A DNA stretch of 64,000 nucleotides from Acidobacteria bacterium UBA2999 (GCA_002346475.1 DDZV01000015.1:47643-111642); one strand, 5' to 3'. Counted from the first letter of the stretch, positions 1,619-60,336 are shown. Numbers and translations are program-made. The notes: generated from the letters alone by a model not told the origin.

Positions 1619-2986
1619 TTAAAAATAAAATTTTAGACGACTATATAGAAAATCACGCTGAGAGAAACGACTTAGCATGTCTAATCCATTCCCCAAAAGC
1701 CAGCCACCAGATATCTCCAACCATATGTTGTCACGTACGCGAATCGACCCGATGCCACGGACAAAGGCACTCTCGGCCTTTGGATTGTACGCACTTAAGA
1801 ATCGAAGCGTCCGTGTTTCGCGTGCAAATGTTCGCTCGATCCACCCAACTAATAGCACATCCGTTGTTTCAATAGCTGGATCAAAGAGTACCGGGGCTCC
1901 CTCCCATTGTGACTGGTTGATACGACTCCAAGTAATCATGAGATTGCTACTAAAATGATAATTTCCTATTCGACGATCGATACCAACTCCACCACTCAGT
2001 GATCGCCCAGGGATACTATTAAGTACTGTAAATGATTGCAGAGTGTCTTCTGGAAAGTACGCGACTTCCCCCCTAATACCCCATTGCCCACGCACTGTTT
2101 CAAAATCCCCAGCAATCATTGTGAATCGTGGAAACGTCTCATATAGCAGAAAGGTCTGCCTGGTTGCTTCCAATGCCGGTGATGGCTCCCGTGTAAAGAT
2201 CGGCAGCGTTTTAAAACCTCGATACACTGATGCGCTCAGGTCAAGCCGTCCAACAGTTCCAGTGACTCGTCCACCGCCTTGCAATTGATTCCACGCAGTT
2301 TTTGGTTCTTCACGAATAGTATTGAAGCGTGCACAACTCCCCGTCCCAGCCAGACAAATAATTTCTTTCGGTGCACCAAGAAAAAATGGTGACGTTTCCT
2401 CCTCAAGTTGATCAAATCGCCCAGGACGAAACATCGGCACTACAATACCCTCAACAGTAAAATTTCTAGGTAGGTATACTCGCCCCCGTACAAGCATTAC
2501 GGGAAGACGTGCTTCGCTGCGCCCCTCTAAAAAAAACCGAGATATATCGAGTGGATTAACTACATCACTCGGCTGAAATTCATCGAGGCGACCCCAAACA
2601 ATGCGCGATGCCCCGATACGTACATCTGCCCGGGCTGTTCGAAATTCGGCATATAGGTCAGAGGGACGAATAATCGCTGCGGCAGTAGTAGTCGTATTCC
2701 CTACGACATTTCTGTTGGCAACAAAACTGTCAATGTATGCACCCATATTCAGATGCAACCAGTTGCTAACGTCCTGCCGACGCTCAATCAAAAGTCTCGT
2801 CCGCAGTTCTGCAACTGATTGATGCCCACCAGCTTTGTCTATGTCTGGCATCACGTTAAACAGGACGGAGACATAACCGTCAATCCAATTGGCTAGATTC
2901 GGTGAAGAACTAGTTTCCTGCTGTCCAAAAGTAGTAACTGGAAAAATGGTGAGCAGTACAACTAAATACAAACACTGGACTCTCAC
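1619..2986 (-). CDS. DUF1302-like outer-membrane beta-barrel protein
   Basis: The track start (3121) lies 138 nt inside the upstream gene. GTG at 2986 overlaps the MMPL stop as GTGA and gives a signal peptide (RVQCLYLVVLLTIFPVTTFG/QQ). The sequence has a 'RIGASRIVWGRLDEF..NPLD' block, an alternating strand pattern, and a C-terminal ...RLKFYF aromatic end typical of OM barrels. Confidence 0.6.
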   Translation of the reverse strand: MRVQCLYLVVLLTIFPVTTFGQQETSSSPNLANWIDGYVSVLFNVMPDIDKAGGHQSVAELRTRLLIERRQDVSNWLHLNMGAYIDSFVANRNVVGNTTTTAAAIIRPSDLYAEFRTARADVRIGASRIVWGRLDEFQPSDVVNPLDISRFFLEGRSEARLPVMLVRGRVYLPRNFTVEGIVVPMFRPGRFDQLEEETSPFFLGAPKEIICLAGTGSCARFNTIREEPKTAWNQLQGGGRVTGTVGRLDLSASVYRGFKTLPIFTREPSPALEATRQTFLLYETFPRFTMIAGDFETVRGQWGIRGEVAYFPEDTLQSFTVLNSIPGRSLSGGVGIDRRIGNYHFSSNLMITWSRINQSQWEGAPVLFDPAIETTDVLLVGWIERTFARETRTLRFLSAYNPKAESAFVRGIGSIRVRDNIWLEISGGWLLGNGLDMLSRFSQRDFLYSRLKFYF

Positions 2987-5304
2987 GGTGTGATTCCCAT
3001 CCGCCTGGCCACTTGAGCTGTGGCATAGATGCGTGGAAGCACTGTAATAACAGCTGGAACAATAAATACTTCCGTAATAAACGCAACCGCCATAGTCAAT
3101 GCCAGTAAGCCGCCAAACCAAGCAGTTGGTTTATAACTAGAGAACATCATGATGCTAAAGCCCAACGAGTTAACAATCGCTGTGGTGAGTGCTGCGCGAC
3201 CTTCATGGGAAGTCGCTATTTCAATAGCCGTGTACGTACTGACCCCGGCTGTAGCTTCTCGTCGGTAACGCCCGATAAAATGTATGGTGTCGTCATCAAC
3301 AATCCCAAGTGCCACGCTCGCAACCATTACGGTAGCGACATTAAGCGAAATATCAATCCAACCCATCACTCCAAGAACAGCCAAAACTGGAACCGCATTG
3401 GCAATCACACCAAGAACGCCGAACCGAACTGATCGGAAAACCAGAAAAATCACTGCAAACACAGTTAAAAAGGCGGTACCAAAACTAGTTATTTGTGATG
3501 TCACGAGGTAATGGTCGAGTGTTGAGAACATCCGTCCAGCACCAGTAACCGTAGTTGTAATACCAGATCCCCTGAATACAGCTTCTGCTCGCCTCTCTGC
3601 CTCATTGATCTGCTCAAAGACCACGTCTGAACTCATCGATGCGAGTTTTATGGACATCTGTGCTTTCGAGTAATCACTGGTAGTAATCCGTGACAACTCA
3701 TGACGCCCAGCACCAGACAACTCGAAAAGGAACAACTCCTGTGCCACAGCCTCAGCACTTTCAGGAAGCACTGCCGCTTCTGGCACACCACCGTTTAGTT
3801 CACGGTTGACCCGTTTTACATAATCCGCTAGCGATACAACCTTTCGAGTGTGGGGAAGCTCCTCAAGTGATTCTCCGAGACGCTCCATACGCTGAAGAAT
3901 CTCTGGGGACTTCATTGATCCTGGCGATCCTTCTAAAAGAATATTAAAACTGTAGACACCTGATAACTCGCGGTCGATCACTTGTGCTGACTCATGGAGA
4001 GGATGTCCCTCTCCAAAAAAATTGATGTGGTTCGTATCGACCCGAAGACGTGAAATTCCAGTTATGGCAAGAGCTGCAATCACAAACCCCACTATGAGGA
4101 CGGAGTGTGCGTACCGTGTCGAGAATGATGCAACTGCTTTCAGGGGACCCATGAGCCATCGTTCCTGTGGTGGCTTTACCGTCTCCGGTGTCAAAAACAT
4201 CAGGAGTGTTGGCACAAATACCAGCGACATTACAAAATCAACCATCACACCGGTAGCCGCTCCGATACCAAAGGCACGAACAGCAAGAACCTGACTTGTG
4301 GCTAGCGATGCTAGGCCAAGGGCGGTTGTCGCACTGGCACCGAATAGCGGTACAAAGAGATTCCTGATAGTTGATATAAATGCTTGTTTCTTGTCGCCCG
4401 TGTCTCTTAATTGATGTATGAAATGCTGCACGATGTGCACATCATCGGCAATCGCAAGCACAACAACAAGGGGTGGCAACATACTAGCGAGCACGTTGTA
4501 CTCAAAACCCATAAGTGAAAAAAGGCCGAGCGTCCAAAGAACTGCAACTATTACTGAGGCCGTGACTATTAATGTGATCTTCCAAGACCTAAACAACCAA
4601 TAGACGGCAAGAATTGTGAGTAGAAGAATGGGGGGAGCTAATGTAAACGTGTTTGAACGGGTCACCCGATTGTAAGTTTCACTGATCTCAAGGCTACCGT
4701 TGTAGTGTGCTGTGAGACCTAGCGGCAATCGAGGATCAATGATCTGGTGAATTCCCTCAATAACTTCACCGCGCATATCATCGACGCGATCTTCATCAAA
4801 ATTAACGACAATGGCCGTAACTCGACCATTTTCAGATACAAGGTCTCCACGAAGTAACCGATCATCTAGGGCACGTGCACGTGCAATACCTGGTGCGTCT
4901 GGCAACTCAAGATCGTCCAGCAAGGGACGAACCTCAATGCCGCTTGAAAACTCCCCGTCTTCAGGAAGCGCACGAACAATGTTAACCGTCGATAAACTCT
5001 GGACCCGCTGGACAGTATCGGTGCGTTCGAGTTCCTCGGTAACCTCTCGAATAAACTCGAGTGACTCTTTGGTAAATAATCTGTCGCCCTCAATAGCAAT
5101 AATGAGTGTCCGGCCACCGCCGAACTCATCCCGAAATTGTTCGTAAGTTTGATAGACAGGATCGCTTTCTGAAATCCACGTAGTAACATCATTATTTAGT
5201 GCGGTGAAATTCGCGAGTGGGGCTAAAGCAAGCGATCCGAGTACAAGTAAAACAAAAGCGGGATGGCGGAATTGCCAAATGAGAATCGCAAGCCGTGCAC
5301 TCAT
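2983..5304 (-). CDS. MMPL / RND-superfamily (COG1033-type) exporter
   Basis: 773 aa with two TM bundles, each preceded by a large soluble loop. The acidic TM motifs are duplicated: 'LAIADDVHIVQHF' and 'ALGIVDDDTIHFIGRY'. Confidence 0.85.
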   Translation of the reverse strand: MSARLAILIWQFRHPAFVLLVLGSLALAPLANFTALNNDVTTWISESDPVYQTYEQFRDEFGGGRTLIIAIEGDRLFTKESLEFIREVTEELERTDTVQRVQSLSTVNIVRALPEDGEFSSGIEVRPLLDDLELPDAPGIARARALDDRLLRGDLVSENGRVTAIVVNFDEDRVDDMRGEVIEGIHQIIDPRLPLGLTAHYNGSLEISETYNRVTRSNTFTLAPPILLLTILAVYWLFRSWKITLIVTASVIVAVLWTLGLFSLMGFEYNVLASMLPPLVVVLAIADDVHIVQHFIHQLRDTGDKKQAFISTIRNLFVPLFGASATTALGLASLATSQVLAVRAFGIGAATGVMVDFVMSLVFVPTLLMFLTPETVKPPQERWLMGPLKAVASFSTRYAHSVLIVGFVIAALAITGISRLRVDTNHINFFGEGHPLHESAQVIDRELSGVYSFNILLEGSPGSMKSPEILQRMERLGESLEELPHTRKVVSLADYVKRVNRELNGGVPEAAVLPESAEAVAQELFLFELSGAGRHELSRITTSDYSKAQMSIKLASMSSDVVFEQINEAERRAEAVFRGSGITTTVTGAGRMFSTLDHYLVTSQITSFGTAFLTVFAVIFLVFRSVRFGVLGVIANAVPVLAVLGVMGWIDISLNVATVMVASVALGIVDDDTIHFIGRYRREATAGVSTYTAIEIATSHEGRAALTTAIVNSLGFSIMMFSSYKPTAWFGGLLALTMAVAFITEVFIVPAVITVLPRIYATAQVARRMGITP

Positions 5305-6173
5305 TGGCCAGGCACCATCTCCAAGCGTCTCCGGCTAAAATCAGCTTCCGTTAACCCAACGTTGTACTCGATTGACAGGGTTTCAAGCTCGGTTCGTGTT
5401 TGTTCACTCTTATCAACCATTACGAGTGCCGTCACTGTCCAAATACCGCTGATTTGATCTAATCGCGTTACCTCAAAAACTTTCGCTTGCTCATCCCGAT
5501 GGTTATATATATCAGCATGTACAAGTACAAGTTGTTCTTTAAGGATCGTTGAGACTGACCGTGGATAGTTCATCTTTTGATCTTTGCCAACGGCTTCGAT
5601 ACGCCAGGCTGGATAATATGCACCATCAGGTGCCACCCAGGTAGCATCTTCCTCAACAAATTGGTAAGTGTAATCGGCTACATTTCGACCACCAATATCC
5701 TCATAGCTGAGATCGCTGCCAACAAAACTTTCTTGTTTTTCAGCACCTGTAATCCGCCTAACACGCCCGAGTGCAGGCAAGAAGAGAAACCGCTCATCCT
5801 CAGCATCTGGATGTTCCCACACAAGAAGCGCAGTGTTCCGTATGTCATTAGGATAGGTAAAGCGTACGAGGATGCGGTCTTTGGTGTTCCCGGCCTCGTG
5901 ACGGGTTAAGAAAGTCATCGTCCGCTCACGAACACGGCCCTGACGATCATAAAGCCGCATTCGCATTTCAGCCTGAGAATCTTGACCCGTATCACGATCC
6001 TGAGCCAGACGTGCCACTTCCTCAGCGGTAAGTTGATTCGCCGTAACGACTGGAATTTGGTACATCAAACCCATTACGCCAAAACACAACACCAAGAAAC
6101 TTATGCTCGTGATAGAGAACTGCTTCAATGCTTGTGGCAATACTTGGTTGTGATGTAGATCAAGGCGAAACAT
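5301..6173 (-). CDS. outer-membrane lipoprotein-sorting (LolA-like / DUF1329-like) protein
   Basis: 290 aa with an N-terminal hydrophobic anchor. It carries the hallmark block 'ERFLFLPALGRVRRITG...SFVGSDLSYEDIGG' and overlaps the MMPL gene by 4 nt. Confidence 0.8.
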   Translation of the reverse strand: MFRLDLHHNQVLPQALKQFSITSISFLVLCFGVMGLMYQIPVVTANQLTAEEVARLAQDRDTGQDSQAEMRMRLYDRQGRVRERTMTFLTRHEAGNTKDRILVRFTYPNDIRNTALLVWEHPDAEDERFLFLPALGRVRRITGAEKQESFVGSDLSYEDIGGRNVADYTYQFVEEDATWVAPDGAYYPAWRIEAVGKDQKMNYPRSVSTILKEQLVLVHADIYNHRDEQAKVFEVTRLDQISGIWTVTALVMVDKSEQTRTELETLSIEYNVGLTEADFSRRRLEMVPGQ

Positions 6174-6185
6174 GACAAAGAGTCT

Positions 6186-7364
6186 TTACGTTTGTTGAGG
6201 ATTCTGAGCTGTAGGCACTCGGCTTAAACCCACCATACTAATAAGAAACGCTGCTAGCATTAGGGTAGCAGCTGTGAGATAAGGTGTTACTAAGCCAAAG
6301 TTGTCGTAAAGAAACCCCCCTGTAACAGGTCCGATAATCCGAGCAAGACTGGCTGTCGACTGCGAAATGCCAAGCACGCCACCTTGTTCGTCAGCGTGTG
6401 ACAATCGAGAAATCATAGACGTAATTGAGGGACTATTAAAACCCATGCCTACTGATAGCAGTGCTACTGCTACAAGAAGGGCTGTAACACTTCCTGAGAT
6501 GGGGATGAGTACAAGACCAGCTGCAAGTACTAGAATCGCAATGGGGACAACACGGTGCTCACCAACCAGGCGTGCCATACGCCCAACGAGGGTACCTTGA
6601 ACAATCGCCAAAATTACACCTACGAATGCAAAAACATACCCAATGGTTGAAGCATTAAATCCATAGCGTACTTCGCTAAAAAGTGCGAAAGTTGCCTCAA
6701 AACTTGAAAAAGCAGCGATCACAATAAAATAAACTAACAGTAATTGTGGAAGATATGGACGTGCTATGGCAGCCTTCAACACTTCGAAACGGGAGCCTCC
6801 ACGCTGATGCCCATGATTGCTTGGAGGTTTAGACTCTGGTAACACAAACCAGGCAGATATGAAGTTCAGCAATGACAATCCAGATGCAAAAAATGAAGGT
6901 ACCTGATAACCCCACTGGCTAAGGAATCCCCCAATAGCAGGACCAAAAATAAAACCCAAGCCAAATGCTGCGCCAACAAGCCCCATGCCTCTGGCTCGAT
7001 TCTCTGGAGTGGTAACGTCAGCCATGTACGCTTGTGCCGTGGACACATTTGCGCCAGCAATACCTGCAAAAATGCGTGAGACAAACAATAGTGTCAGCGA
7101 TGTTGCCAACCCAAAAAATAGGTACGCTAAAAAGGATCCAAACAATCCAATCAGAATCACTGGTCGACGGCCAATGCGATCTGATAATCGACCCCAGAAT
7201 GGGGCAAACAAAAACTGCATAAACGAAAACGATGTGCTCAGCAAACCAACGGAAAGAGCAGTGCCACCGAAATGCTCAGCATAAAACGGTAGCAATGGAA
7301 TAATGATTCCAAAGCCAATTAGATCAATAAACACTGTAAGGAAAACTACGGCCGTTGGAGTCAT
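6186..7364 (-). CDS. MFS transporter (TCR/Tet-like, 12 TM)
   Basis: 392 aa with MFS motif A 'GRLSDRIGRRPVIL'. It lies 12 nt upstream of the LolA-like gene. Confidence 0.85.
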   Translation of the reverse strand: MTPTAVVFLTVFIDLIGFGIIIPLLPFYAEHFGGTALSVGLLSTSFSFMQFLFAPFWGRLSDRIGRRPVILIGLFGSFLAYLFFGLATSLTLLFVSRIFAGIAGANVSTAQAYMADVTTPENRARGMGLVGAAFGLGFIFGPAIGGFLSQWGYQVPSFFASGLSLLNFISAWFVLPESKPPSNHGHQRGGSRFEVLKAAIARPYLPQLLLVYFIVIAAFSSFEATFALFSEVRYGFNASTIGYVFAFVGVILAIVQGTLVGRMARLVGEHRVVPIAILVLAAGLVLIPISGSVTALLVAVALLSVGMGFNSPSITSMISRLSHADEQGGVLGISQSTASLARIIGPVTGGFLYDNFGLVTPYLTAATLMLAAFLISMVGLSRVPTAQNPQQT

Positions 7365-8104
7365 TCCGCGTCAGCTCCCACCCGGTGAAGACGGAAATGT
7401 GTGAAATACGACACAAGAAGGTAATAAACCGGAAAAATAAACGAACTCCAAAATAAAATTCTCGACACATCGGTAGACAATTGAAGGACTAAAACAAGAA
7501 TTATCGCTGTCCATACAATGCCAAGCGTAATTGTAGTGCGCCTCAACGTAACCGTCTTTGAGCGGTAAATGTATTTCAATGGTACAAAGACAAGAATCAC
7601 AAAAACAATAAGTACTACGGCATTGATAACAAGAGGCCAGTTAGCAATGTACAAATAAAAAACTACGATGTTCCAGTAGGATGGAAATCCAGTAAAAAAA
7701 TGATCGTCTGTTTTGGCCGCTGATTGACTAAAACCATAGGCACTAGCAAGTAACATTGCAGCACAAATTGGGACCGTGACGGACACTGGCACAAGGGATG
7801 CGTACGACACAAGTAACACAGGTACGAACACGTAGGTGAGATAGTCAACAAGATTGTCGAGCAAAGCACCATTAAACCAGGGAAGCTTTTCTGAAACGCG
7901 AAAACGCCTAGCTAGGAATCCGTCTGTTGAATCAATTACTGTAGCTACAAATAATAAAAGGAAGGCCCGTTGGTATGCTTGCTCAGTAATACTCGTAACT
8001 GCAAGGAATCCAAGTACTACACCGCTTGCAGTATAAAGATGAATTAGCCAGGCACCAACCACAGCGTCAAGCTCACAGTCGACGGACAGCGGCTGGGAAA
8101 TCAT
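7361..8104 (-). CDS. pcs: phosphatidylcholine synthase (CDP-alcohol phosphatidyltransferase family)
   Basis: 'DSTDGFLARR...LLDNLVDYLTYV' is the CDP-alcohol transferase motif. The 'LIHLYTASG' and 'FFTGFPSYWNIVVFY' blocks match Pcs as I remember it from rhizobia. I chose ATG 8104 because the track start at 8218 is deep in the upstream gene. The 3' end overlaps the MFS gene by 4 nt. Confidence 0.7.
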   Translation of the reverse strand: MISQPLSVDCELDAVVGAWLIHLYTASGVVLGFLAVTSITEQAYQRAFLLLFVATVIDSTDGFLARRFRVSEKLPWFNGALLDNLVDYLTYVFVPVLLVSYASLVPVSVTVPICAAMLLASAYGFSQSAAKTDDHFFTGFPSYWNIVVFYLYIANWPLVINAVVLIVFVILVFVPLKYIYRSKTVTLRRTTITLGIVWTAIILVLVLQLSTDVSRILFWSSFIFPVYYLLVSYFTHFRLHRVGADAE

Positions 8105-9608
8105 TCCAGACCGGTACGCCACAGAAGTGACTTCCTTCGGTGCATCTTGGTGAAACAAGCCCGTTACGAATGACGCACGGCGGACCAATATGTCGCGCGA
8201 TCCTAGGATGTGCAACACGAACTTGGGCTAATTCATCCATCGATGCTAAATAAATTTCCTCCTGTGCATTAAAACAAGTACGCATTGTCCACTTGTGCAT
8301 CAAAGCAAGAAGTGAACCTGATTCGATAAAGCGAAGAGCCTTCGCGTTTGGTAAGAGGTAAAGCGCAAATTCTAGCGGTACTCCCAAATCAAGAAGCCTG
8401 TTTTTAGCTTCCCACGCATGTTCCATGGCCTCCTTATAAAGGCTGTAAGCATCTGTGTTTGAAGAGATTAGGCGAGGTGTTATGTAATCTGGATCACGTG
8501 TATCAGTAAACGCCATCAATGGGCGGGATGCTGGCACCATCCGGTGCCGTTGGTCTTGTGAATCAGCAGTATGACTTAATCGTTTTTCAAAAACATATGT
8601 TACGTGATGCAAAGCCCGCATCAGTGGTGAATTGTATGTTACATTCATTATGTCAAGTCGGTAACGATTCTTTGCTGGATCCATAACCCGATTAAGCGCT
8701 TCATCATCTGACATCTCCGCTAAGGTCAATCCAAATACTGATCGTACTGCTTCAGCAAGAACTCCTTCGGCTTCTGGAGATACGTCAAGCAATCGTGAAC
8801 AGCGCTTACCAAGTCGCGTATCAAATTCAGCAATAAAAGTTTCGCCTCTGTCTCGCGGACGAGGAAAAGATGTTTCTGCTAAGTCTTCCGACAACCATGG
8901 TTCCTCGCCGATGCGTTCGAAGAACGCTGGATCCCACTCCTTTACAAGCCTGACCATTTCCCCTACAACCTGCCTAGCTTCATACGGCGCATCACCGCTA
9001 TTAACCATACGTTGCAACCGATGCAAGACAATGCCGGAAACTGTGTGCACCATGGAGGTGAAAGCTGCGATTGGCAACACGTAACGTGCCGTTTCAATGG
9101 CTCGTTTCCCTGCGTCTTTGTCAATCACTTTTAGTCGTTCAGGTGAACTCTTCGGCTGGATATACCGCAACTCTTTTAAGATGGTGGTGGCATCATCTTT
9201 TAGTAATGAGGACAACTTAGCGTAATAGTCCCAAGCCCTAAGAATCGCAGCTTCGTAAATGTTAAGCGCCTCACCACTGAGTGGCGGCACAAACGCACGT
9301 GGTTCACGCAATTTGACATAGCGCTGACTGGATTGCTCGGAGTTGTAGAAAGGATATGAATGCAGAAAACTCCAAACAAATTGTCGAGACACATTTTCAA
9401 GACCAAATTCAAAGTGAGCATGCTGATAAACCGTGTGATGTCCGCCATCAAAGGTTAGTCGACCTATTGATTCTCGTTGTCGTTCAGTCACTTCATTTGA
9501 CGACACAACACGCGGCGAGTAACAAGTACGTGCCGCAGCAATTGCCCCATCGTAGGGCATAACAGGTGCAGTCCGGAGAGTAATATGCGGGGGATCCGTG
9601 AGTAACAT
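8073..9608 (-). CDS. double-length flavin-dependent thymidylate synthase (ThyX/Thy1)-like protein
   Basis: 511 aa, equivalent to two Thy1-like halves. Half 1: 'GGHHTVYQHAHFEFGLENVSRQ...LHSYPFYNSEQSSQRYV'. Half 2: 'HHVTYVFEKRLSHTADSQDQRHRMVPASRP'. The C-terminus has a Cys cluster, 'PPCVIRNGLVSPRCTEGSHFCG'. Confidence 0.65.
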   Translation of the reverse strand: MLLTDPPHITLRTAPVMPYDGAIAAARTCYSPRVVSSNEVTERQRESIGRLTFDGGHHTVYQHAHFEFGLENVSRQFVWSFLHSYPFYNSEQSSQRYVKLREPRAFVPPLSGEALNIYEAAILRAWDYYAKLSSLLKDDATTILKELRYIQPKSSPERLKVIDKDAGKRAIETARYVLPIAAFTSMVHTVSGIVLHRLQRMVNSGDAPYEARQVVGEMVRLVKEWDPAFFERIGEEPWLSEDLAETSFPRPRDRGETFIAEFDTRLGKRCSRLLDVSPEAEGVLAEAVRSVFGLTLAEMSDDEALNRVMDPAKNRYRLDIMNVTYNSPLMRALHHVTYVFEKRLSHTADSQDQRHRMVPASRPLMAFTDTRDPDYITPRLISSNTDAYSLYKEAMEHAWEAKNRLLDLGVPLEFALYLLPNAKALRFIESGSLLALMHKWTMRTCFNAQEEIYLASMDELAQVRVAHPRIARHIGPPCVIRNGLVSPRCTEGSHFCGVPVWNDFPAAVRRL

Positions 9609-9644: not shown

Positions 9645-10175
9645 CTAAGCATCTTCACTCTTGGCCCAGTACTTGGTGAACTCTTCCATATAAGTCAACG
9701 TTTTGAGTGAATCCATCCGATCGAAAAAAAGAATCCCGTCAAGATGATCCGTTTCATGTTGGACCACACGTGAGGGGAAATCTGTAAGATGTAATTCCAT
9801 TGGTTTCCCATTCCTGTCTAGCCCTCGGACAGTGATTTCAAATTGTCTCGGAACCATTCCACGAATGTCAGGAATACTGAGACACCCTTCCCAACCTTCG
9901 ACCGTGGCCGAGTCGGTAGATACAATTTCTGGGTTAATAATTACAGTTGCGTTAGCTTCAGGGTCTGGCTCATCCTCTAACAGCGCAACAAATAAACGAA
10001 CGCTCTCATGGACTTGCGGAGCAGCCAATCCAACACCATGGTACTCATGCATTGTTTCGATCATGTCATCAATTAGTTGCTGTAACGCTCGGCTGTGAAT
10101 CTTCGACGACTCAATCGGTTTTGCTTGGCGTCGCAACACAGGATGACCCATACGTACGACTTTTAGTATGGACAT
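9645..10175 (-). CDS. def: peptide deformylase
   Basis: All three PDF motifs are present: 'GVGLAAPQV', 'EGCLSIPD' and 'QHETDHLDG'. Confidence 0.95.
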   Translation of the reverse strand: MSILKVVRMGHPVLRRQAKPIESSKIHSRALQQLIDDMIETMHEYHGVGLAAPQVHESVRLFVALLEDEPDPEANATVIINPEIVSTDSATVEGWEGCLSIPDIRGMVPRQFEITVRGLDRNGKPMELHLTDFPSRVVQHETDHLDGILFFDRMDSLKTLTYMEEFTKYWAKSEDA

Positions 10176-57213: not shown

Positions 57214-60200
57214 TCACCGAAAGCACGGAAGTTGTAACGGCTCGTACGTGCTGGTCGGAGTGCGACGACTGTCAACCGAGAGCCAAATAATCAGTCCCTC
57301 TCGGTGTAAGCGATCCTGAAGAATTGGATACGAATCAACAAATCGGTTCGCGGCATAGGCATGGACATCTTCATACGCTTCCAAGTACTGCAGGGGTCTT
57401 GATCCACCAACGCCGACGAGAATCGGCACCGGAGATTGTTCAACTAAGGCTATCGTGCGCTGCTGCAACTCCGCAGAGTGTTGAAACCCGTTACCCCAAG
57501 CCATGTGTCGCACAACGCGTCGCTCAGCATAGTACGGTGTTGTGTACATATCTGTCATTGCCCAGATCCGATCTTCCGGCGCAGTGCACTCGTAGAAGTA
57601 CCGCAACAATGCGCGATCACCTCTGCTCTCCTTCGGCGCATATCCATCAATCGGTGGCGATATTGTCCACCGGTTGAATTTTTCCGCAGATACGTCCCAC
57701 ATCCTCGTAACTCCTCCGAAAACCCCGATCCTGTTCAAGAATGAGGAATTGAAAATCCTGGTGTGGCTAATCGTAGCACCTATTGAGATCACGACTACGA
57801 CGGTGACAACGGCAAGGAGGACTGTTTGCCGAAGAATGCGACCGACCGTACGCGTCTGCAACGCTTGAGTCACTTGACGCCACGAAACCCAGCTCTGGAA
57901 AACCTGTGGAAGGCACCACGCACTGAAAACCATTGCGATGTTCACGTGGTCTTGGAAAGCCCCCATTTTTCGCATGAGCGCATAGTTAGTAATTACCGTC
58001 ATCAGGCCCAGCGCGAGCATCTTCGCACCCTCGTGCGACATTCCGTCGATTTGCTGGCCACGCACTGCTTTCATTATCAGTAATCCGATGACGAGAAAGG
58101 GAAGCAGCATTGTGACGTAGTACAACCACGCCCCGGCATTCTGGGCATGGATGATTTTTGGTAACACAGCGAGTCGCAGTATCGAAAAATCACGTTGCCA
58201 TGACATAAGCCACGAATCACTTTCGAGTTTTACATCCTCGAGTAAGGGAGTACCTGGTGTCGTCGTCCAGACAGATTCGATGCCACTACTTCCACTCACA
58301 TACCTGTCACTAACCAGGGCCTTAAGACGAGCTGAACTGGCATCGACCATGGTGTACGCATGCATACCTGCTGGCGCATTGATCGTGACGAGACCATGTT
58401 TCGTTTCGAGTGCTTGTCGCTGCTCGGTAGTCACAACATCGTGCGCCCATAGAACGTTTAACCGCGCGCCTATAAAAGCATCTTGATCTTCCAGCCATAC
58501 ACTGTCCTCAATTTCGCCTACTACTTGGAAAGTGCCTTCGACTTCGGTTGGGATAATACGGCCTATGGTTTCTACTCGTTCATCGTGTACTAACCGCGTT
58601 ACATTCTCGACCGAGGTATTTGTGATGTCATAGTCAAATGCCAAATGGTTATTTTCATTCTCGTTGAATTTTCTATTGACGAGTTGGTACTCTGCCTCTG
58701 CAGCAAAACGCAATTCCTTAGAAAGATCGTTGACCCAAACAATCCCAATCCGTGGGCCTAATACGATGGCCGCCGTGTCTTCGACTCTTGTGTCTTGTAC
58801 CAACTGCGTGACATTCGCACGAGAGGGATCCGCGAGCTCGTAGAAAAATGAACGGCCATCATCACCATTCGGGACTTTGTTGACGAGTTGGTACTGTGCC
58901 TCCGCAGCGACGGATGCCTCTGCGGATACCTGTTCAGCCCAGCGAAGCCCAATCCGTGGACCTGCTTTGGGAATCTCGATCAGGCCGATCGCCTCTGGAC
59001 GTATCACGGGACGTGTACCTTGCGTTCGTAAGATTGCACGGTCGGTCATCAGCGCAGTGATATTGTCTTGCGAACGATCTTGAACCTCATATTGCACCGG
59101 TTCCCCAGGCAGGGTAATGGCTGAAACATTCGACTCGTTAGAAATTGGTACGAGTTGGTATTGGGCTTCGAGACGGGTACGTTCTGAGTCGGTAACCCAC
59201 TCCGCCCAGAGAACCGTCAGCGATTCCCCGGCAGCCCCGGCTTCCATTTGGTACGCGCGCCGAAATGACCCGTAGACACCATCTACGATATTCACCTTTG
59301 AATCAGCTACTAGCGCTTTGAGGTTAACGTCTGACGGGTCAAGTAGTTGGTAACTGTGCCAACCGCCGGGCTCTCGAAGAGGCAGATCGTCAAGCCCTCT
59401 AGGCTGAGTATTCCCCTGTAGGCCATATTGTGTTTCCAGTTGTGTCCGTAAACGGGGAGATACCTCGGGTGCCCATTCGATGGCAATCCCGGCGGGGAAT
59501 TGAGGCATTATGCCCACCCAAAACGAAGGCCGAGACTCATCGATCACGAGCGGTACGGATTGGCGTCCTTCCTGATCGAGTTGACGTGCGAAATCAATGC
59601 GCTCAGTGAAATAAGCAACGATCCCTTCATTGATTTGGACTAGGACAAAGAACGGCAAGAATATGATGATTCCAACACCAACGAATCGCCCTACGGAGTA
59701 GGCGATTCTGCGGTACCCGTCGTGCCAATGTGCAATGAGAATTGCTATAGAAGCACCGAGGCCTACGTACAAACCGTGATCATGTCGAAAACCGAACGCC
59801 ACGGCCACCGCCACCGCAAGCCCGAACATGCGCAGGAAAGTTGGCTTCTCAATGTATCGCCACGTAAGCCAGCCACCGAGAGGGTATACAAATATTTTTG
59901 GATAACTGTAGACCTTGGTTTCGATCATCAGCACCATAACAACGATTAGAAGTACGAAAGCTATGAGACGTGAGCGGCTGGCTTCCCAAGCCATGTCGTA
60001 GCTGAGGGTAAGAGCAACGGTAGTGAACGTGACTGCAAGGAATATTTCGCCAATGACGCGGTAGCCCACAATCTTCTGTGCTATTGCTGACATAAACCAA
60101 AAGAGTGGATCGCCCATGTCCACAAAGCCGTCGAGCCATGCATCGCCTTTTAGAAACGCTGCAGCTTTCCCGAGAGCTAAGTGATCGTCACCCCCAAGAT

Positions 60201-60336
60201 CTTTAACAATTAACCATTGCAGTATCCACACGAACACAAAGATCGTCGTAAGTGTCAGTGCCTGATACCTGCGGGAAGGAACGGATACCATTGTTATCTG
60301 TGCTCTACGCTTTATGAAGATCTGGCTTGTGCTCAT
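57214..60336 (-). CDS. 1040-aa polytopic membrane protein, GT-C-glycosyltransferase-like, with an inserted five-repeat soluble region
   Basis: About 7 TM in residues 1-250, with 'GGDD' in the first extracytoplasmic loop. Five tandem repeats span residues 283-690, followed by ~4 more TM (730-860) and a ~180-aa C-terminal soluble domain. An alternative ATG at 60291 would remove the 32-nt overlap with the cupin gene. The GT-C assignment is an inference from topology and gene context only. Confidence 0.55.
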   Translation of the reverse strand: MSTSQIFIKRRAQITMVSVPSRRYQALTLTTIFVFVWILQWLIVKDLGGDDHLALGKAAAFLKGDAWLDGFVDMGDPLFWFMSAIAQKIVGYRVIGEIFLAVTFTTVALTLSYDMAWEASRSRLIAFVLLIVVMVLMIETKVYSYPKIFVYPLGGWLTWRYIEKPTFLRMFGLAVAVAVAFGFRHDHGLYVGLGASIAILIAHWHDGYRRIAYSVGRFVGVGIIIFLPFFVLVQINEGIVAYFTERIDFARQLDQEGRQSVPLVIDESRPSFWVGIMPQFPAGIAIEWAPEVSPRLRTQLETQYGLQGNTQPRGLDDLPLREPGGWHSYQLLDPSDVNLKALVADSKVNIVDGVYGSFRRAYQMEAGAAGESLTVLWAEWVTDSERTRLEAQYQLVPISNESNVSAITLPGEPVQYEVQDRSQDNITALMTDRAILRTQGTRPVIRPEAIGLIEIPKAGPRIGLRWAEQVSAEASVAAEAQYQLVNKVPNGDDGRSFFYELADPSRANVTQLVQDTRVEDTAAIVLGPRIGIVWVNDLSKELRFAAEAEYQLVNRKFNENENNHLAFDYDITNTSVENVTRLVHDERVETIGRIIPTEVEGTFQVVGEIEDSVWLEDQDAFIGARLNVLWAHDVVTTEQRQALETKHGLVTINAPAGMHAYTMVDASSARLKALVSDRYVSGSSGIESVWTTTPGTPLLEDVKLESDSWLMSWQRDFSILRLAVLPKIIHAQNAGAWLYYVTMLLPFLVIGLLIMKAVRGQQIDGMSHEGAKMLALGLMTVITNYALMRKMGAFQDHVNIAMVFSAWCLPQVFQSWVSWRQVTQALQTRTVGRILRQTVLLAVVTVVVVISIGATISHTRIFNSSFLNRIGVFGGVTRMWDVSAEKFNRWTISPPIDGYAPKESRGDRALLRYFYECTAPEDRIWAMTDMYTTPYYAERRVVRHMAWGNGFQHSAELQQRTIALVEQSPVPILVGVGGSRPLQYLEAYEDVHAYAANRFVDSYPILQDRLHREGLIIWLSVDSRRTPTSTYEPLQLPCFR
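58267..59490 (-). repeat. intragenic tandem array of five 68-96-codon repeats in the 1040-aa membrane protein gene
   Basis: Protein repeats begin GIAIEWAPEV (283), SLTVLWAEWV (372), RIGLRWAEQV (461), RIGIVWVNDL (529) and RLNVLWAHDV (625). DNA echo: 'ttgacgagttggtac' occurs at 58676 and 58880, and 'cccaatccgtgg' at 58744 and 58948 (204-nt period). Confidence 0.85.

Follow-up and report, generated by a model that had tools for sequence, protein, structure and literature searches.

A conserved RND, LolA-like and barrel trio beside a phosphatidylcholine synthase-like gene in Acidobacteriota: a candidate lipid route to the outer membrane

Do five closely packed genes of an acidobacterium form a unit that makes a membrane lipid and carries it across the envelope, or are they neighbors in a compact genome? 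The genes lie on the minus strand at positions 1619-8104 of a 64,000-nucleotide (nt) stretch of Acidobacteria bacterium UBA2999 (GCA_002346475.1 DDZV01000015.1:47643-111642), which we refer to as the window. In transcription order, they encode a Pcs-like CDP-alcohol phosphatidyltransferase (a putative phosphatidylcholine synthase), an MFS transporter, a LolA-like and putatively periplasmic protein, an RND inner-membrane transporter of the MMPL type, and a barrel that is a divergent relative of DUF1302; the last three genes are called the trio hereafter. A first-pass annotation had read the five as an envelope lipid synthesis-and-export unit. We found that the cluster is conserved and that the trio would span the envelope, while the case for phosphatidylcholine (PC) as the cargo is weak and the co-location can be inherited within a larger block. 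On balance, we lean toward reading the region as a stretch of a long, vertically inherited synteny block in Vicinamibacterales-like Acidobacteriota that holds two coupled modules, of which the trio most likely moves an endogenous lipid to the outer membrane.

Genes were called from a map of the open reading frames (ORFs) of the minus strand, and every junction was read directly from the sequence. The pcs gene (7361-8104; 247 amino acids (aa) from its ATG; PF01066 and Pcs models) shares an ATGA at 7361-7364 with the gene of a DHA1-type MFS transporter (6186-7364; 392 aa; MFS_1 E = 9e-67), which is an optional member of the cluster. A spacer of 12 nt (6174-6185) sets the pcs/MFS module apart from the trio module. 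The LolA-like gene (5301-6173; 290 aa; PF17131 E = 1e-48) overlaps the HAE3/MMPL-type RND gene (2983-5304; 773 aa; MMPL E = 5e-35) through a second ATGA at 5301-5304, and the RND gene overlaps the barrel gene (1619-2986; 455 aa, with a GTG start and a signal peptide; DUF1302 E = 6e-10) through a GTGA at 2983-2986. The five consecutive genes, the three 4-nt overlaps and the single 12-nt gap described in the first-pass annotation are thus all confirmed. The pcs start lies 32 nt inside the 3' end of the upstream thyX gene (8073-8104), or 50 nt inside it if the start is the GTG that is found 18 nt further up and is called in relatives. The run from pcs through the trio is probably co-transcribed.

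The tight junctions of the cluster are real, yet they are typical of this genome and unremarkable alone. By a crude gene set for the whole window, ~92% of the sequence is coding, and among 30 same-strand neighbor pairs the gap is 12 nt or less in 17 (57%), with 13 of the 30 overlapping or abutting. Such overlap is no sign of linked function here, given that pcs overlaps thyX as tightly and that tight junctions are the genome norm. Promoter- and terminator-like sites between positions 1 and 11000 occur at or below the shuffled expectation, and their counts have no bearing on operon structure. The family annotation of the operon and its flanks revealed no adjacent regulator gene in the window.

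The LolA-like protein belongs to PF17131 (LolA_like/TP_0789-like), with 165.7 bits against a cut-off of 30. It had been likened to DUF1329; however, DUF1329 (PF07044) scores 22.0 bits against a gathering threshold of 23.1 with only 83 residues matched, so the protein is not a member of that family. The remaining family calls, namely Pcs, MFS, MMPL/RND and a DUF1302-like barrel, proved sound, with the qualification that the DUF1302 match of the barrel is confined to the center of that model. Solved homologs of the LolA-like protein were found at E = 1e-34 to 1e-20, including Porphyromonas gingivalis LolA3 (9TP6, E = 1e-34), 4Z48 and 3BK5. Its N-terminus has hydrophobic residues 16-44 followed by VTA/NQ (here and below, the slash marks the presumed cleavage site), and LVLC makes a poor lipobox. 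Literature searches on PF17131/TP_0789 proteins, on LolA-like with MMPL proteins and on HAE3 with lipids found no functional study of this subfamily.

The RND protein matches MMPL in two stretches, and its best RND model is TIGR00921 (HAE3), at 208.4 bits under a cut-off of 351.9. Hydropathy places a first transmembrane segment (TM1) before a loop at 37-219, then TM2-6 and TM7, a second loop at 421-604 and TM8-12, the two periplasmic loops being ~180 aa each. Acidic residues are found within two membrane segments, in IADD(287-288)VH of TM4 and in IVDDD(670-672)TIHF of TM10, and the second motif is conserved in relatives. An assignment as an HpnN orthologue was rejected, with 110 bits against 752 for TIGR03480 and 68 against 1100 for NF052374.

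The barrel protein starts with the signal MRVQCLYLVVLLTIFPVTTFG/QQ and matches DUF1302 (PF06980) with 39.2 bits against 23.2, covering only positions 148-370 of the 541 in the model; many of its relatives carry a precomputed PF06980 match. An AlphaFold2 model built from a 28-sequence alignment (pLDDT 79, pTM 0.76) has ~20 strands, and its Foldseek matches are porins and AlgE (E = 1e-11 to 1e-9, TM-score up to 0.53). From this model and its fold matches, the barrel fold is predicted with confidence. A profile search of the PDB sequences with the barrel alignment found nothing.

To place the trio among its relatives, we scanned metagenomes with the barrel, which gave 80 loci at 38-92% identity, and added six long contigs (L166-L171; loci are given by such numbers where they need to be told apart). 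The barrel has more than 1300 relatives, and the closest of them are nearly all at the same locus, with the MMPL gene always upstream of the barrel gene and the LolA-like gene upstream of the MMPL gene. Across barrel identities of 38-92%, the trio is fixed between def/thyX/pcs on one side and, on the other, the genes of a metallo-β-lactamase (MBL)-fold hydrolase and an M20 peptidase. We counted as informative those trio locus types with at least 2.5 kb of upstream sequence (n = 20). Fourteen of the 20 carry Pcs upstream of the trio on the same strand, at most 2.7 kb away: in five, the MFS gene stands between (the window, L006, L088, L110 and L166), and in nine it does not (L094, L101, L113, L132, L160, L168, L167, where a PF00144 gene lies between, L171 and L018). 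In the other six, Pcs was not found in the available upstream flank of 4.0-6.9 kb (L087, where pcs is 9 kb away, L095/96, L152, L163, L169 and L170). The co-occurrence of pcs and the trio in related genomes, on which the first-pass annotation had let its reading depend, is therefore observed. A short contig outside the 20 counted, L141, keeps the same order, with an incomplete Pcs just ahead of the LolA-like gene. In L171, the MMPL gene is truncated, the LolA-like gene is missing and a minus-strand ORF sits at the junction of the pcs/MFS side with the trio.

Other genes and sequences appear at this position in some of the loci. A PF00144 gene (serine beta-lactamase/esterase-like) lies just upstream of the LolA-like gene in L167 (4481-5749) and L169 (4494-5567), the neighborhood of L169 being without def, thyX and pcs. 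In L163, the ORF at 6030-6725 has the right size and position for Pcs and was rejected as non-coding, repeat-rich sequence. The surrounding region of L163 (~4800-6700), between a minus-strand ThyX and the LolA-like gene, holds several repeat copies whose translations repeat '...PTAWHDEHEAHE...RRDALQRRTISGC...' and is probably non-coding.

Junction statistics over all loci, which rest on approximate start assignment, reveal where the cluster is held together. A 4-nt overlap joins LolA to MMPL in 21/25 loci, MMPL to the barrel in 38/51 and Pcs to MFS in 10/18. The barrel is followed by the MBL gene within 20 nt in 27/30 loci, Pcs is followed directly by the MBL gene within 20 nt in 11/13, and thyX and Pcs overlap or lie within 6 nt in 20/30. 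By comparison, Pcs and LolA are 21-284 nt apart in 4/5 loci, with one apparent 56-nt overlap, and MFS and LolA are separated by 12 and 314 nt. Because the join between them is the loosest and is sometimes interrupted, we divide the cluster into a thyX-pcs-(MFS) part and a LolA-MMPL-barrel(-MBL) part.

Within the second part, the pump and the barrel are at times a single product. In eight loci with seven distinct, divergent sequences (L138/L140, L150, L152, L155, L161, L162 and L163), MMPL and barrel form one stop-free reading frame. The linker contains a basic stretch (RR), a hydrophobic segment and AxA/Q, that is, the signal peptide of the barrel is retained, now lying past the cytoplasmic C-terminus of the pump as membrane-spanning segment thirteen. 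Such fusions are Rosetta-stone evidence, at the level of sequence, that pump and barrel would work together. The retained signal suggests that the fused barrel is released by signal peptidase and implies that the fused form is an inner-/outer-membrane polyprotein whose signal peptide is internal. Reading the trio as a three-part system, with an inner-membrane RND pump, a periplasmic LolA carrier and a barrel, is thus backed by the conserved overlaps, these fusions and the barrel model.

The first gene of the cluster encodes a protein that matches PF01066 (CDP-OH_P_transf) with 31.8 bits against a gathering threshold of 22 (E = 2e-7). Its best NCBIfam matches are five Pcs models (124-179 bits, E = 1e-52 to 1e-36, near full length), and the rival models PssA, archaetidylserine synthase and PgsA reach 38, 36 and 20 bits. 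Its motif, D58-x2-D61-G62-x2-A65-R66-x12-G79-x3-D83-x3-D87, is invariant in 24 aligned relatives and has the 12-residue spacer of the modified motif DX2DGX2ARX12GX3DX3D given for Pcs (PMC3972451). At least seven hydrophobic segments were found by hydropathy. Relatives number in the thousands, many carrying the Joint Genome Institute name phosphatidylcholine synthase, and a profile search of the PDB sequences with the Pcs alignment returned nothing. PC is among the known lipids of Acidobacteriota (PMC12816986). On these matches and this motif, we accept the protein as a putative Pcs-family enzyme of a divergent clade and infer its alcohol substrate.

The MFS protein scores 238 bits with a Tet(A)-like model, below the tetracycline-efflux cut-off of 475, and is thus no Tet determinant. 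Its nearest solved structures are NorA (E = 5e-36), MFSD10 (E = 3e-33), VMAT and VAChT; judged by these homologs, it is of the DHA1 organic-cation/H+ antiporter type. The default of the DHA1 family is efflux rather than choline uptake. An LplT-type lysophospholipid flippase was considered and rejected, as there is no LplT model among the best 25 of 70 NCBIfam matches and the nearest structures are DHA1 cation antiporters. The suggestion that this protein carries choline or a lyso-lipid is therefore not upheld; a link to choline, a quaternary amine, is chemically plausible. The MFS gene tracks pcs and not the trio or its LolA-like gene: it is present without the trio in ~10 loci and missing from most trio loci.

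Seen from Pcs, the conserved unit is a different one. Using the Pcs alignment as the query on one genome per GTDB species, we obtained 80 loci at 44-57% identity and searched them with the window proteins. Of the 80, ~35, nearly all labelled Vicinamibacterales or Acidobacteriota, share a backbone in which def, tandem ThyX and Pcs occur with the same MBL gene; in ~13 of these, Pcs is followed directly by the MBL gene, and in ~10 by MFS and then the MBL gene. The complete arrangement of the window occurs among the 80 in L006 only, and L018 has LolA-like and MMPL genes 2.6 kb downstream of Pcs, without the barrel and without the MBL gene. A groundwater relative (61% identity) carries def, ThyA, DHFR, Pcs and MFS, and its trio comes 9 kb later, behind unrelated genes; TARA Oceans contigs at 95% identity retain thyX, pcs and MFS. 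From L006 alone, the trio could be taken for a single-lineage insertion between MFS and the MBL gene, a view that was overturned by the barrel-centered scan and the long contigs. In L067, a lone LolA-like gene of orthologue level (7343-8335, minus strand; 312 bits) is separated from Pcs by 2 kb and runs on the other strand, and the 11-kb contig has neither an MMPL nor a barrel gene.

The nearest genes on either side of the cluster are all on the minus strand, as it is. Upstream are the tandem, double-length ThyX thymidylate synthase (8073-9608; two Thy1 stretches, E = 7e-53) and def, the peptide deformylase gene (9645-10175; Pep_deformylase E = 7e-56; NCBIfam match above cut-off), which heads the conserved same-strand run and is found upstream in most related loci. 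Downstream, 5 nt after the barrel gene, is the MBL gene (786-1613), whose product is LACTB2-like with a winged helix (Lactamase_B, PF00753, E = 4e-20; BLACT_WH, PF17778, E = 5e-11), matches human LACTB2 (4AD9, E = 3e-32) over residues 15-264, its full length, and is presumably cytoplasmic, having no hydrophobic segment. These neighbors are as had been described. The MBL gene is the most constant neighbor of the cluster: of 41 loci that extend far enough downstream, ~33 have it after the barrel, and in loci without the trio it comes directly after Pcs or MFS. Next comes an M20 peptidase gene (3-728; Peptidase_M20 E = 1e-20), partial as it runs off the window edge, which also follows the MBL gene in L166-L169 and L171. 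On long contigs, the order is ThiI, DeoC, NUDIX (opposite strand), def, thymidylate synthase, Pcs, the variable part, MBL, M20, Transglut_core2, HAD, DUF1684, acyl-CoA dehydrogenase and thiolase, and the flanks of the window follow this order. Within the clade that shares the block, the window seems to represent a marine member of low GC content.

Some variants concern this neighborhood only. In L001-L003 and L166, ThyA and DHFR sit in the tandem ThyX slot between def and pcs, an in-place swap of non-homologous thymidylate synthase systems. L171 (2642-4831) has def and ThyX called as one 729-aa product on a long-read contig, either a true fusion or a frameshift artefact. In the groundwater loci L001-L003 (~2054-5189), an hpnCDE-like squalene set, made up of an amine-oxidase gene and two SQS_PSY genes, stands between a PduO-type adenosyltransferase and ThiI; the set is not at that position in the window. 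Elsewhere in the window, the minus strand of 57214-60336 contains a 1040-aa ORF with no Pfam match at E of 1e-5 or below.

From these data, we propose a mechanism in two modules. In the first, Pcs most likely condenses CDP-diacylglycerol and choline to PC at the cytoplasmic face of the inner membrane. In the second, the HAE3/MMPL pump, driven by the proton gradient through the acidic residues of TM4 and TM10, would extract its hydrophobic or amphiphilic substrate from the inner membrane and pass it to the soluble periplasmic LolA-fold carrier, which would bring it to the outer-membrane barrel of ~20 strands. We infer the direction of transport, the order of the hand-over, the cargo and the alcohol used by the enzyme. 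Most probably, the cargo is a membrane lipid of the cell itself, bound for the outer membrane; PC leads as a single candidate, though taken by itself it is a doubtful one. A constitutive envelope function is favored over an accessory tolerance trait because the locus is a fixed housekeeping one and has no local regulator.

Many of the observations weigh against this proposal and against a tie between the two modules. The cluster is embedded in a synteny block of 20-25 kb that is housekeeping in character, and the association of pcs with the trio is confined to one clade inside this block, so that inheritance alone can explain it. The join of pcs/MFS to the trio is the loosest in the cluster and sometimes holds an extra gene (the PF00144 gene of L167, the minus-strand ORF of L171), pcs is coupled as tightly to the functionally unrelated thyX, and the trio is linked to the MBL gene at least as strongly as to pcs. 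Either module occurs by itself: Pcs lacks the trio in ~25 backbone loci while staying with the MBL gene; the trio lacks a nearby pcs in L095/96, L152, L163, L169 and L170, again staying with the MBL gene; and in L001-L003 and L087, it is 9 kb from pcs. Outside the backbone, Pcs has none of the three trio genes within 10 kb in ~45 loci, these being from Binatia, Methylomirabilota, 'delta proteobacterium' metagenome-assembled genomes, Chloroflexi and some Vicinamibacterales contigs. In a rough neighbor-joining tree of 67 MBL sequences, without support values, loci with and without the trio interleave, and therefore the trio would be old at this site, with repeated loss or gain. The Pcs-like protein is under all five equivalog cut-offs (300-440; at best 178.9 bits against 440), and for this reason its alcohol substrate is not certain. 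Finally, by analogy, the related AmeABCD system handles exogenous monoterpenes, not membrane lipids. PC as the cargo is weakened in particular because pcs is equally tied to thyX, the whole block is syntenic and the trio follows the MBL gene when the block breaks (L169, L170 and L095), and also because pcs-only and trio-only loci are common and Pcs of other phyla lacks such a partner.

How much weight the tie between pcs and the trio can bear separates two opposite explanations. If it is taken at its strongest, the five genes are a dedicated PC synthesis-and-export unit in which Pcs makes PC, the MFS protein supplies choline or flips a lyso-lipid, and the trio carries PC specifically to the outer membrane. 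That Pcs directly precedes the trio in 14 of 20 locus types, including MFS-less loci in which pcs abuts the LolA-like gene (L094, L101, L132 and L168), agrees with this, as do the rearranged loci L018 and L001-L003, in which pcs and the trio are still no more than 10 kb apart, and the Pcs/MFS overlap in 10 of 18 loci. We nevertheless consider such a unit rather unlikely: the co-location is clade-restricted and lies within a housekeeping block, the junction between the modules is the loosest of all, the trio stays with the MBL gene where pcs is missing and pcs stays where the trio is missing, the ~45 Pcs loci without any trio neighbor are mostly from other phyla, and the MFS protein is an efflux-type DHA1 member absent from most trio loci. 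At the other extreme, the five genes would be mere neighbors, co-transcribed for economy in a compact genome and with no mechanistic link beyond the trio. This has a substantial chance, if somewhat under an even one, considering that 57% of the same-strand pairs in the window are separated by 12 nt or less and that the order of def, thyX, pcs, MBL and M20 is just as well conserved although these genes are unrelated to each other. It largely overlaps with the explanation that we prefer and does not contradict it, and it would fail only upon a dependency between pcs and the trio.

Other explanations differ in what the trio carries. The only characterized relatives point to efflux of exogenous hydrophobic compounds such as terpenes, fatty esters or alkanes, in which case the trio would be an Ame-like tolerance system unrelated to pcs and their co-location historical. 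Deletion of AmeABCD in Castellaniella defragrans lowers monoterpene tolerance (PMC6394551); DUF1302/DUF1329/BNR/RND genes show correlated fitness (cofitness) and matter for the growth of P. putida on Tween 20 and fatty esters; and in Thalassolituus oleivorans, TOL_3187, which has LolA-like and MMPL domains, and the porin-like gene downstream of it are both induced 42-fold on n-C28 (PMC6304351). The serine hydrolase/esterase-like PF00144 gene just upstream of the trio in two loci is in line with this as well. But the trio has no catabolic island, local regulator or BNR/COG4447 partner around it, and a single fixed locus among housekeeping genes over deep divergence suits a constitutive envelope role better, which makes efflux of this kind improbable in our judgement. 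Alternatively, the trio could export another endogenous lipid (a hopanoid, an ornithine or amino lipid, an iso-diabolic-acid-based or a lipopolysaccharide-related one) and stand beside pcs by inheritance. Hopanoid shuttles of the HpnN type are the characterized HAE3 members named in the AmeD paper (PMC6394551), the extended block of the groundwater relatives also includes the hpnCDE-like squalene genes, and five trio locus types without pcs fit a cargo other than PC; against this, the MMPL protein is no HpnN orthologue (68-110 bits against 752-1100), and the window has no adjacent biosynthetic gene for another lipid. We regard any such lipid as quite unlikely.

Staying with the preferred reading, an endogenous lipid moved to the outer membrane by the trio, a bolder version can be formulated. 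The trio might be a dedicated RND-based anterograde route for PC or bulk glycerophospholipid in Acidobacteria, distinct from the AsmA-like/TamB/YhdP bridges and from Mla, with one sub-clade making pump and barrel as a single polyprotein that is cut by signal peptidase. We regard this as a long shot. The supply of lipids to the outer membrane is poorly known in diderms outside Proteobacteria, and systems of an HAE3 RND protein, a LolA fold and a barrel are widespread and mechanistically unexplained. The cluster offers a compact, three-gene version at a fixed and probably constitutively expressed locus of an abundant soil and marine clade of Acidobacteria, natural pump-barrel fusions that argue for direct partnership, and PC as a concrete candidate cargo. 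If PC is not the cargo, the locus cautions that overlaps and conserved order in compact genomes, as with def, thyX and pcs, need not mean a shared pathway.

Compared with known systems, the enzyme of the first module resembles the bacterial Pcs of Sinorhizobium, Agrobacterium, Legionella, Pseudomonas and Borrelia in family, 12-residue-spacer motif, size and multi-pass topology. Those enzymes are supplied by ChoXWV or BetT uptake, whereas the partner of Pcs in the window, where present, is a DHA1 MFS protein and not an ABC or BCCT importer; in addition, the window enzyme belongs to a divergent clade and is embedded in a def-thyX operon. An MFS gene beside the gene of a periplasmic lipid-binding protein is also found in mycobacterial Rv1410 and LprG, which export lipid to the outer envelope. 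In contrast to that pair, the MFS gene of the window tracks pcs and not the LolA-like gene, and its product gives a weak, partial local match to Rv1410 only.

The pump shares with HpnN and MmpL3 the MMPL/HAE-type RND architecture of 12 TM segments, two periplasmic domains and acidic proton-relay residues in TM4 and TM10. HpnN moves hopanoid and MmpL3 trehalose monomycolate from the inner membrane toward the outer envelope, as is proposed for the trio pump, which scores far under both equivalog cut-offs. According to the AmeD paper (PMC6394551), HpnN works without dedicated periplasmic or outer-membrane partners, whereas the trio pump has two, both with genes that overlap its own, and in some loci it is fused to one. 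For the carrier, the closest solved structure is that of P. gingivalis LolA3. In P. gingivalis and F. johnsoniae, LolA3 is a LolA-fold paralogue outside the canonical Lol route that does not bind LolB and shows no lipoprotein-related phenotype when mutated; the papers on it describe no RND or barrel partner, and the flexirubin pair LolA2/LolB2 falls into the same comparison. TOL_3187 and its porin comprise the same three functional parts, two of them naturally fused, although there the carrier is fused to the pump, while in relatives of the trio it is the pump that is fused to the barrel. The T. oleivorans system is further set apart by its induction by long-chain alkanes, its gammaproteobacterial host and a context without pcs.

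The closest counterparts are the cassettes that combine DUF1302, DUF1329, BNR and COG1033-type RND genes. The first-pass annotation had called this grouping uncharacterized to its knowledge; it has been studied in part, through the work on AmeABCD and the cofitness studies by RB-TnSeq, a transposon-sequencing approach. In the latter, the genes were cofit in several bacteria, with occurrences in Shewanella, Pseudomonas and Kangiella, and export of a cell-wall component was proposed (bioRxiv 10.1101/072470). AmeD represents an HAE3 sub-lineage that is always accompanied by a barrel and periplasmic partners (PMC6394551). Like AmeABCD and the cofit cluster, the trio encodes an HAE3-type RND protein together with a putatively periplasmic protein of the LolA superfamily and a DUF1302-type barrel, and in all of them an envelope-spanning path for hydrophobic molecules is proposed. 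Unlike AmeABCD, it lacks the BNR/Ycf48-like fourth component: a BNR/COG4447 (Ycf48-like) gene was not found in the operon, the annotated window flanks or the six long relatives. The trio carrier is a 290-aa PF17131 protein instead of a DUF1329 protein of ~450 aa, and the barrel has 455 aa instead of ~600 and aligns with no more than the middle portion of the DUF1302 model. The genes are ordered carrier, pump, barrel and not barrel, carrier, BNR, pump, and they occupy a housekeeping locus rather than a catabolic island. In summary, the trio is a compact three-gene variant of the DUF1302/DUF1329/BNR/HAE3-RND cassettes and not a member of the Ame cassette itself.

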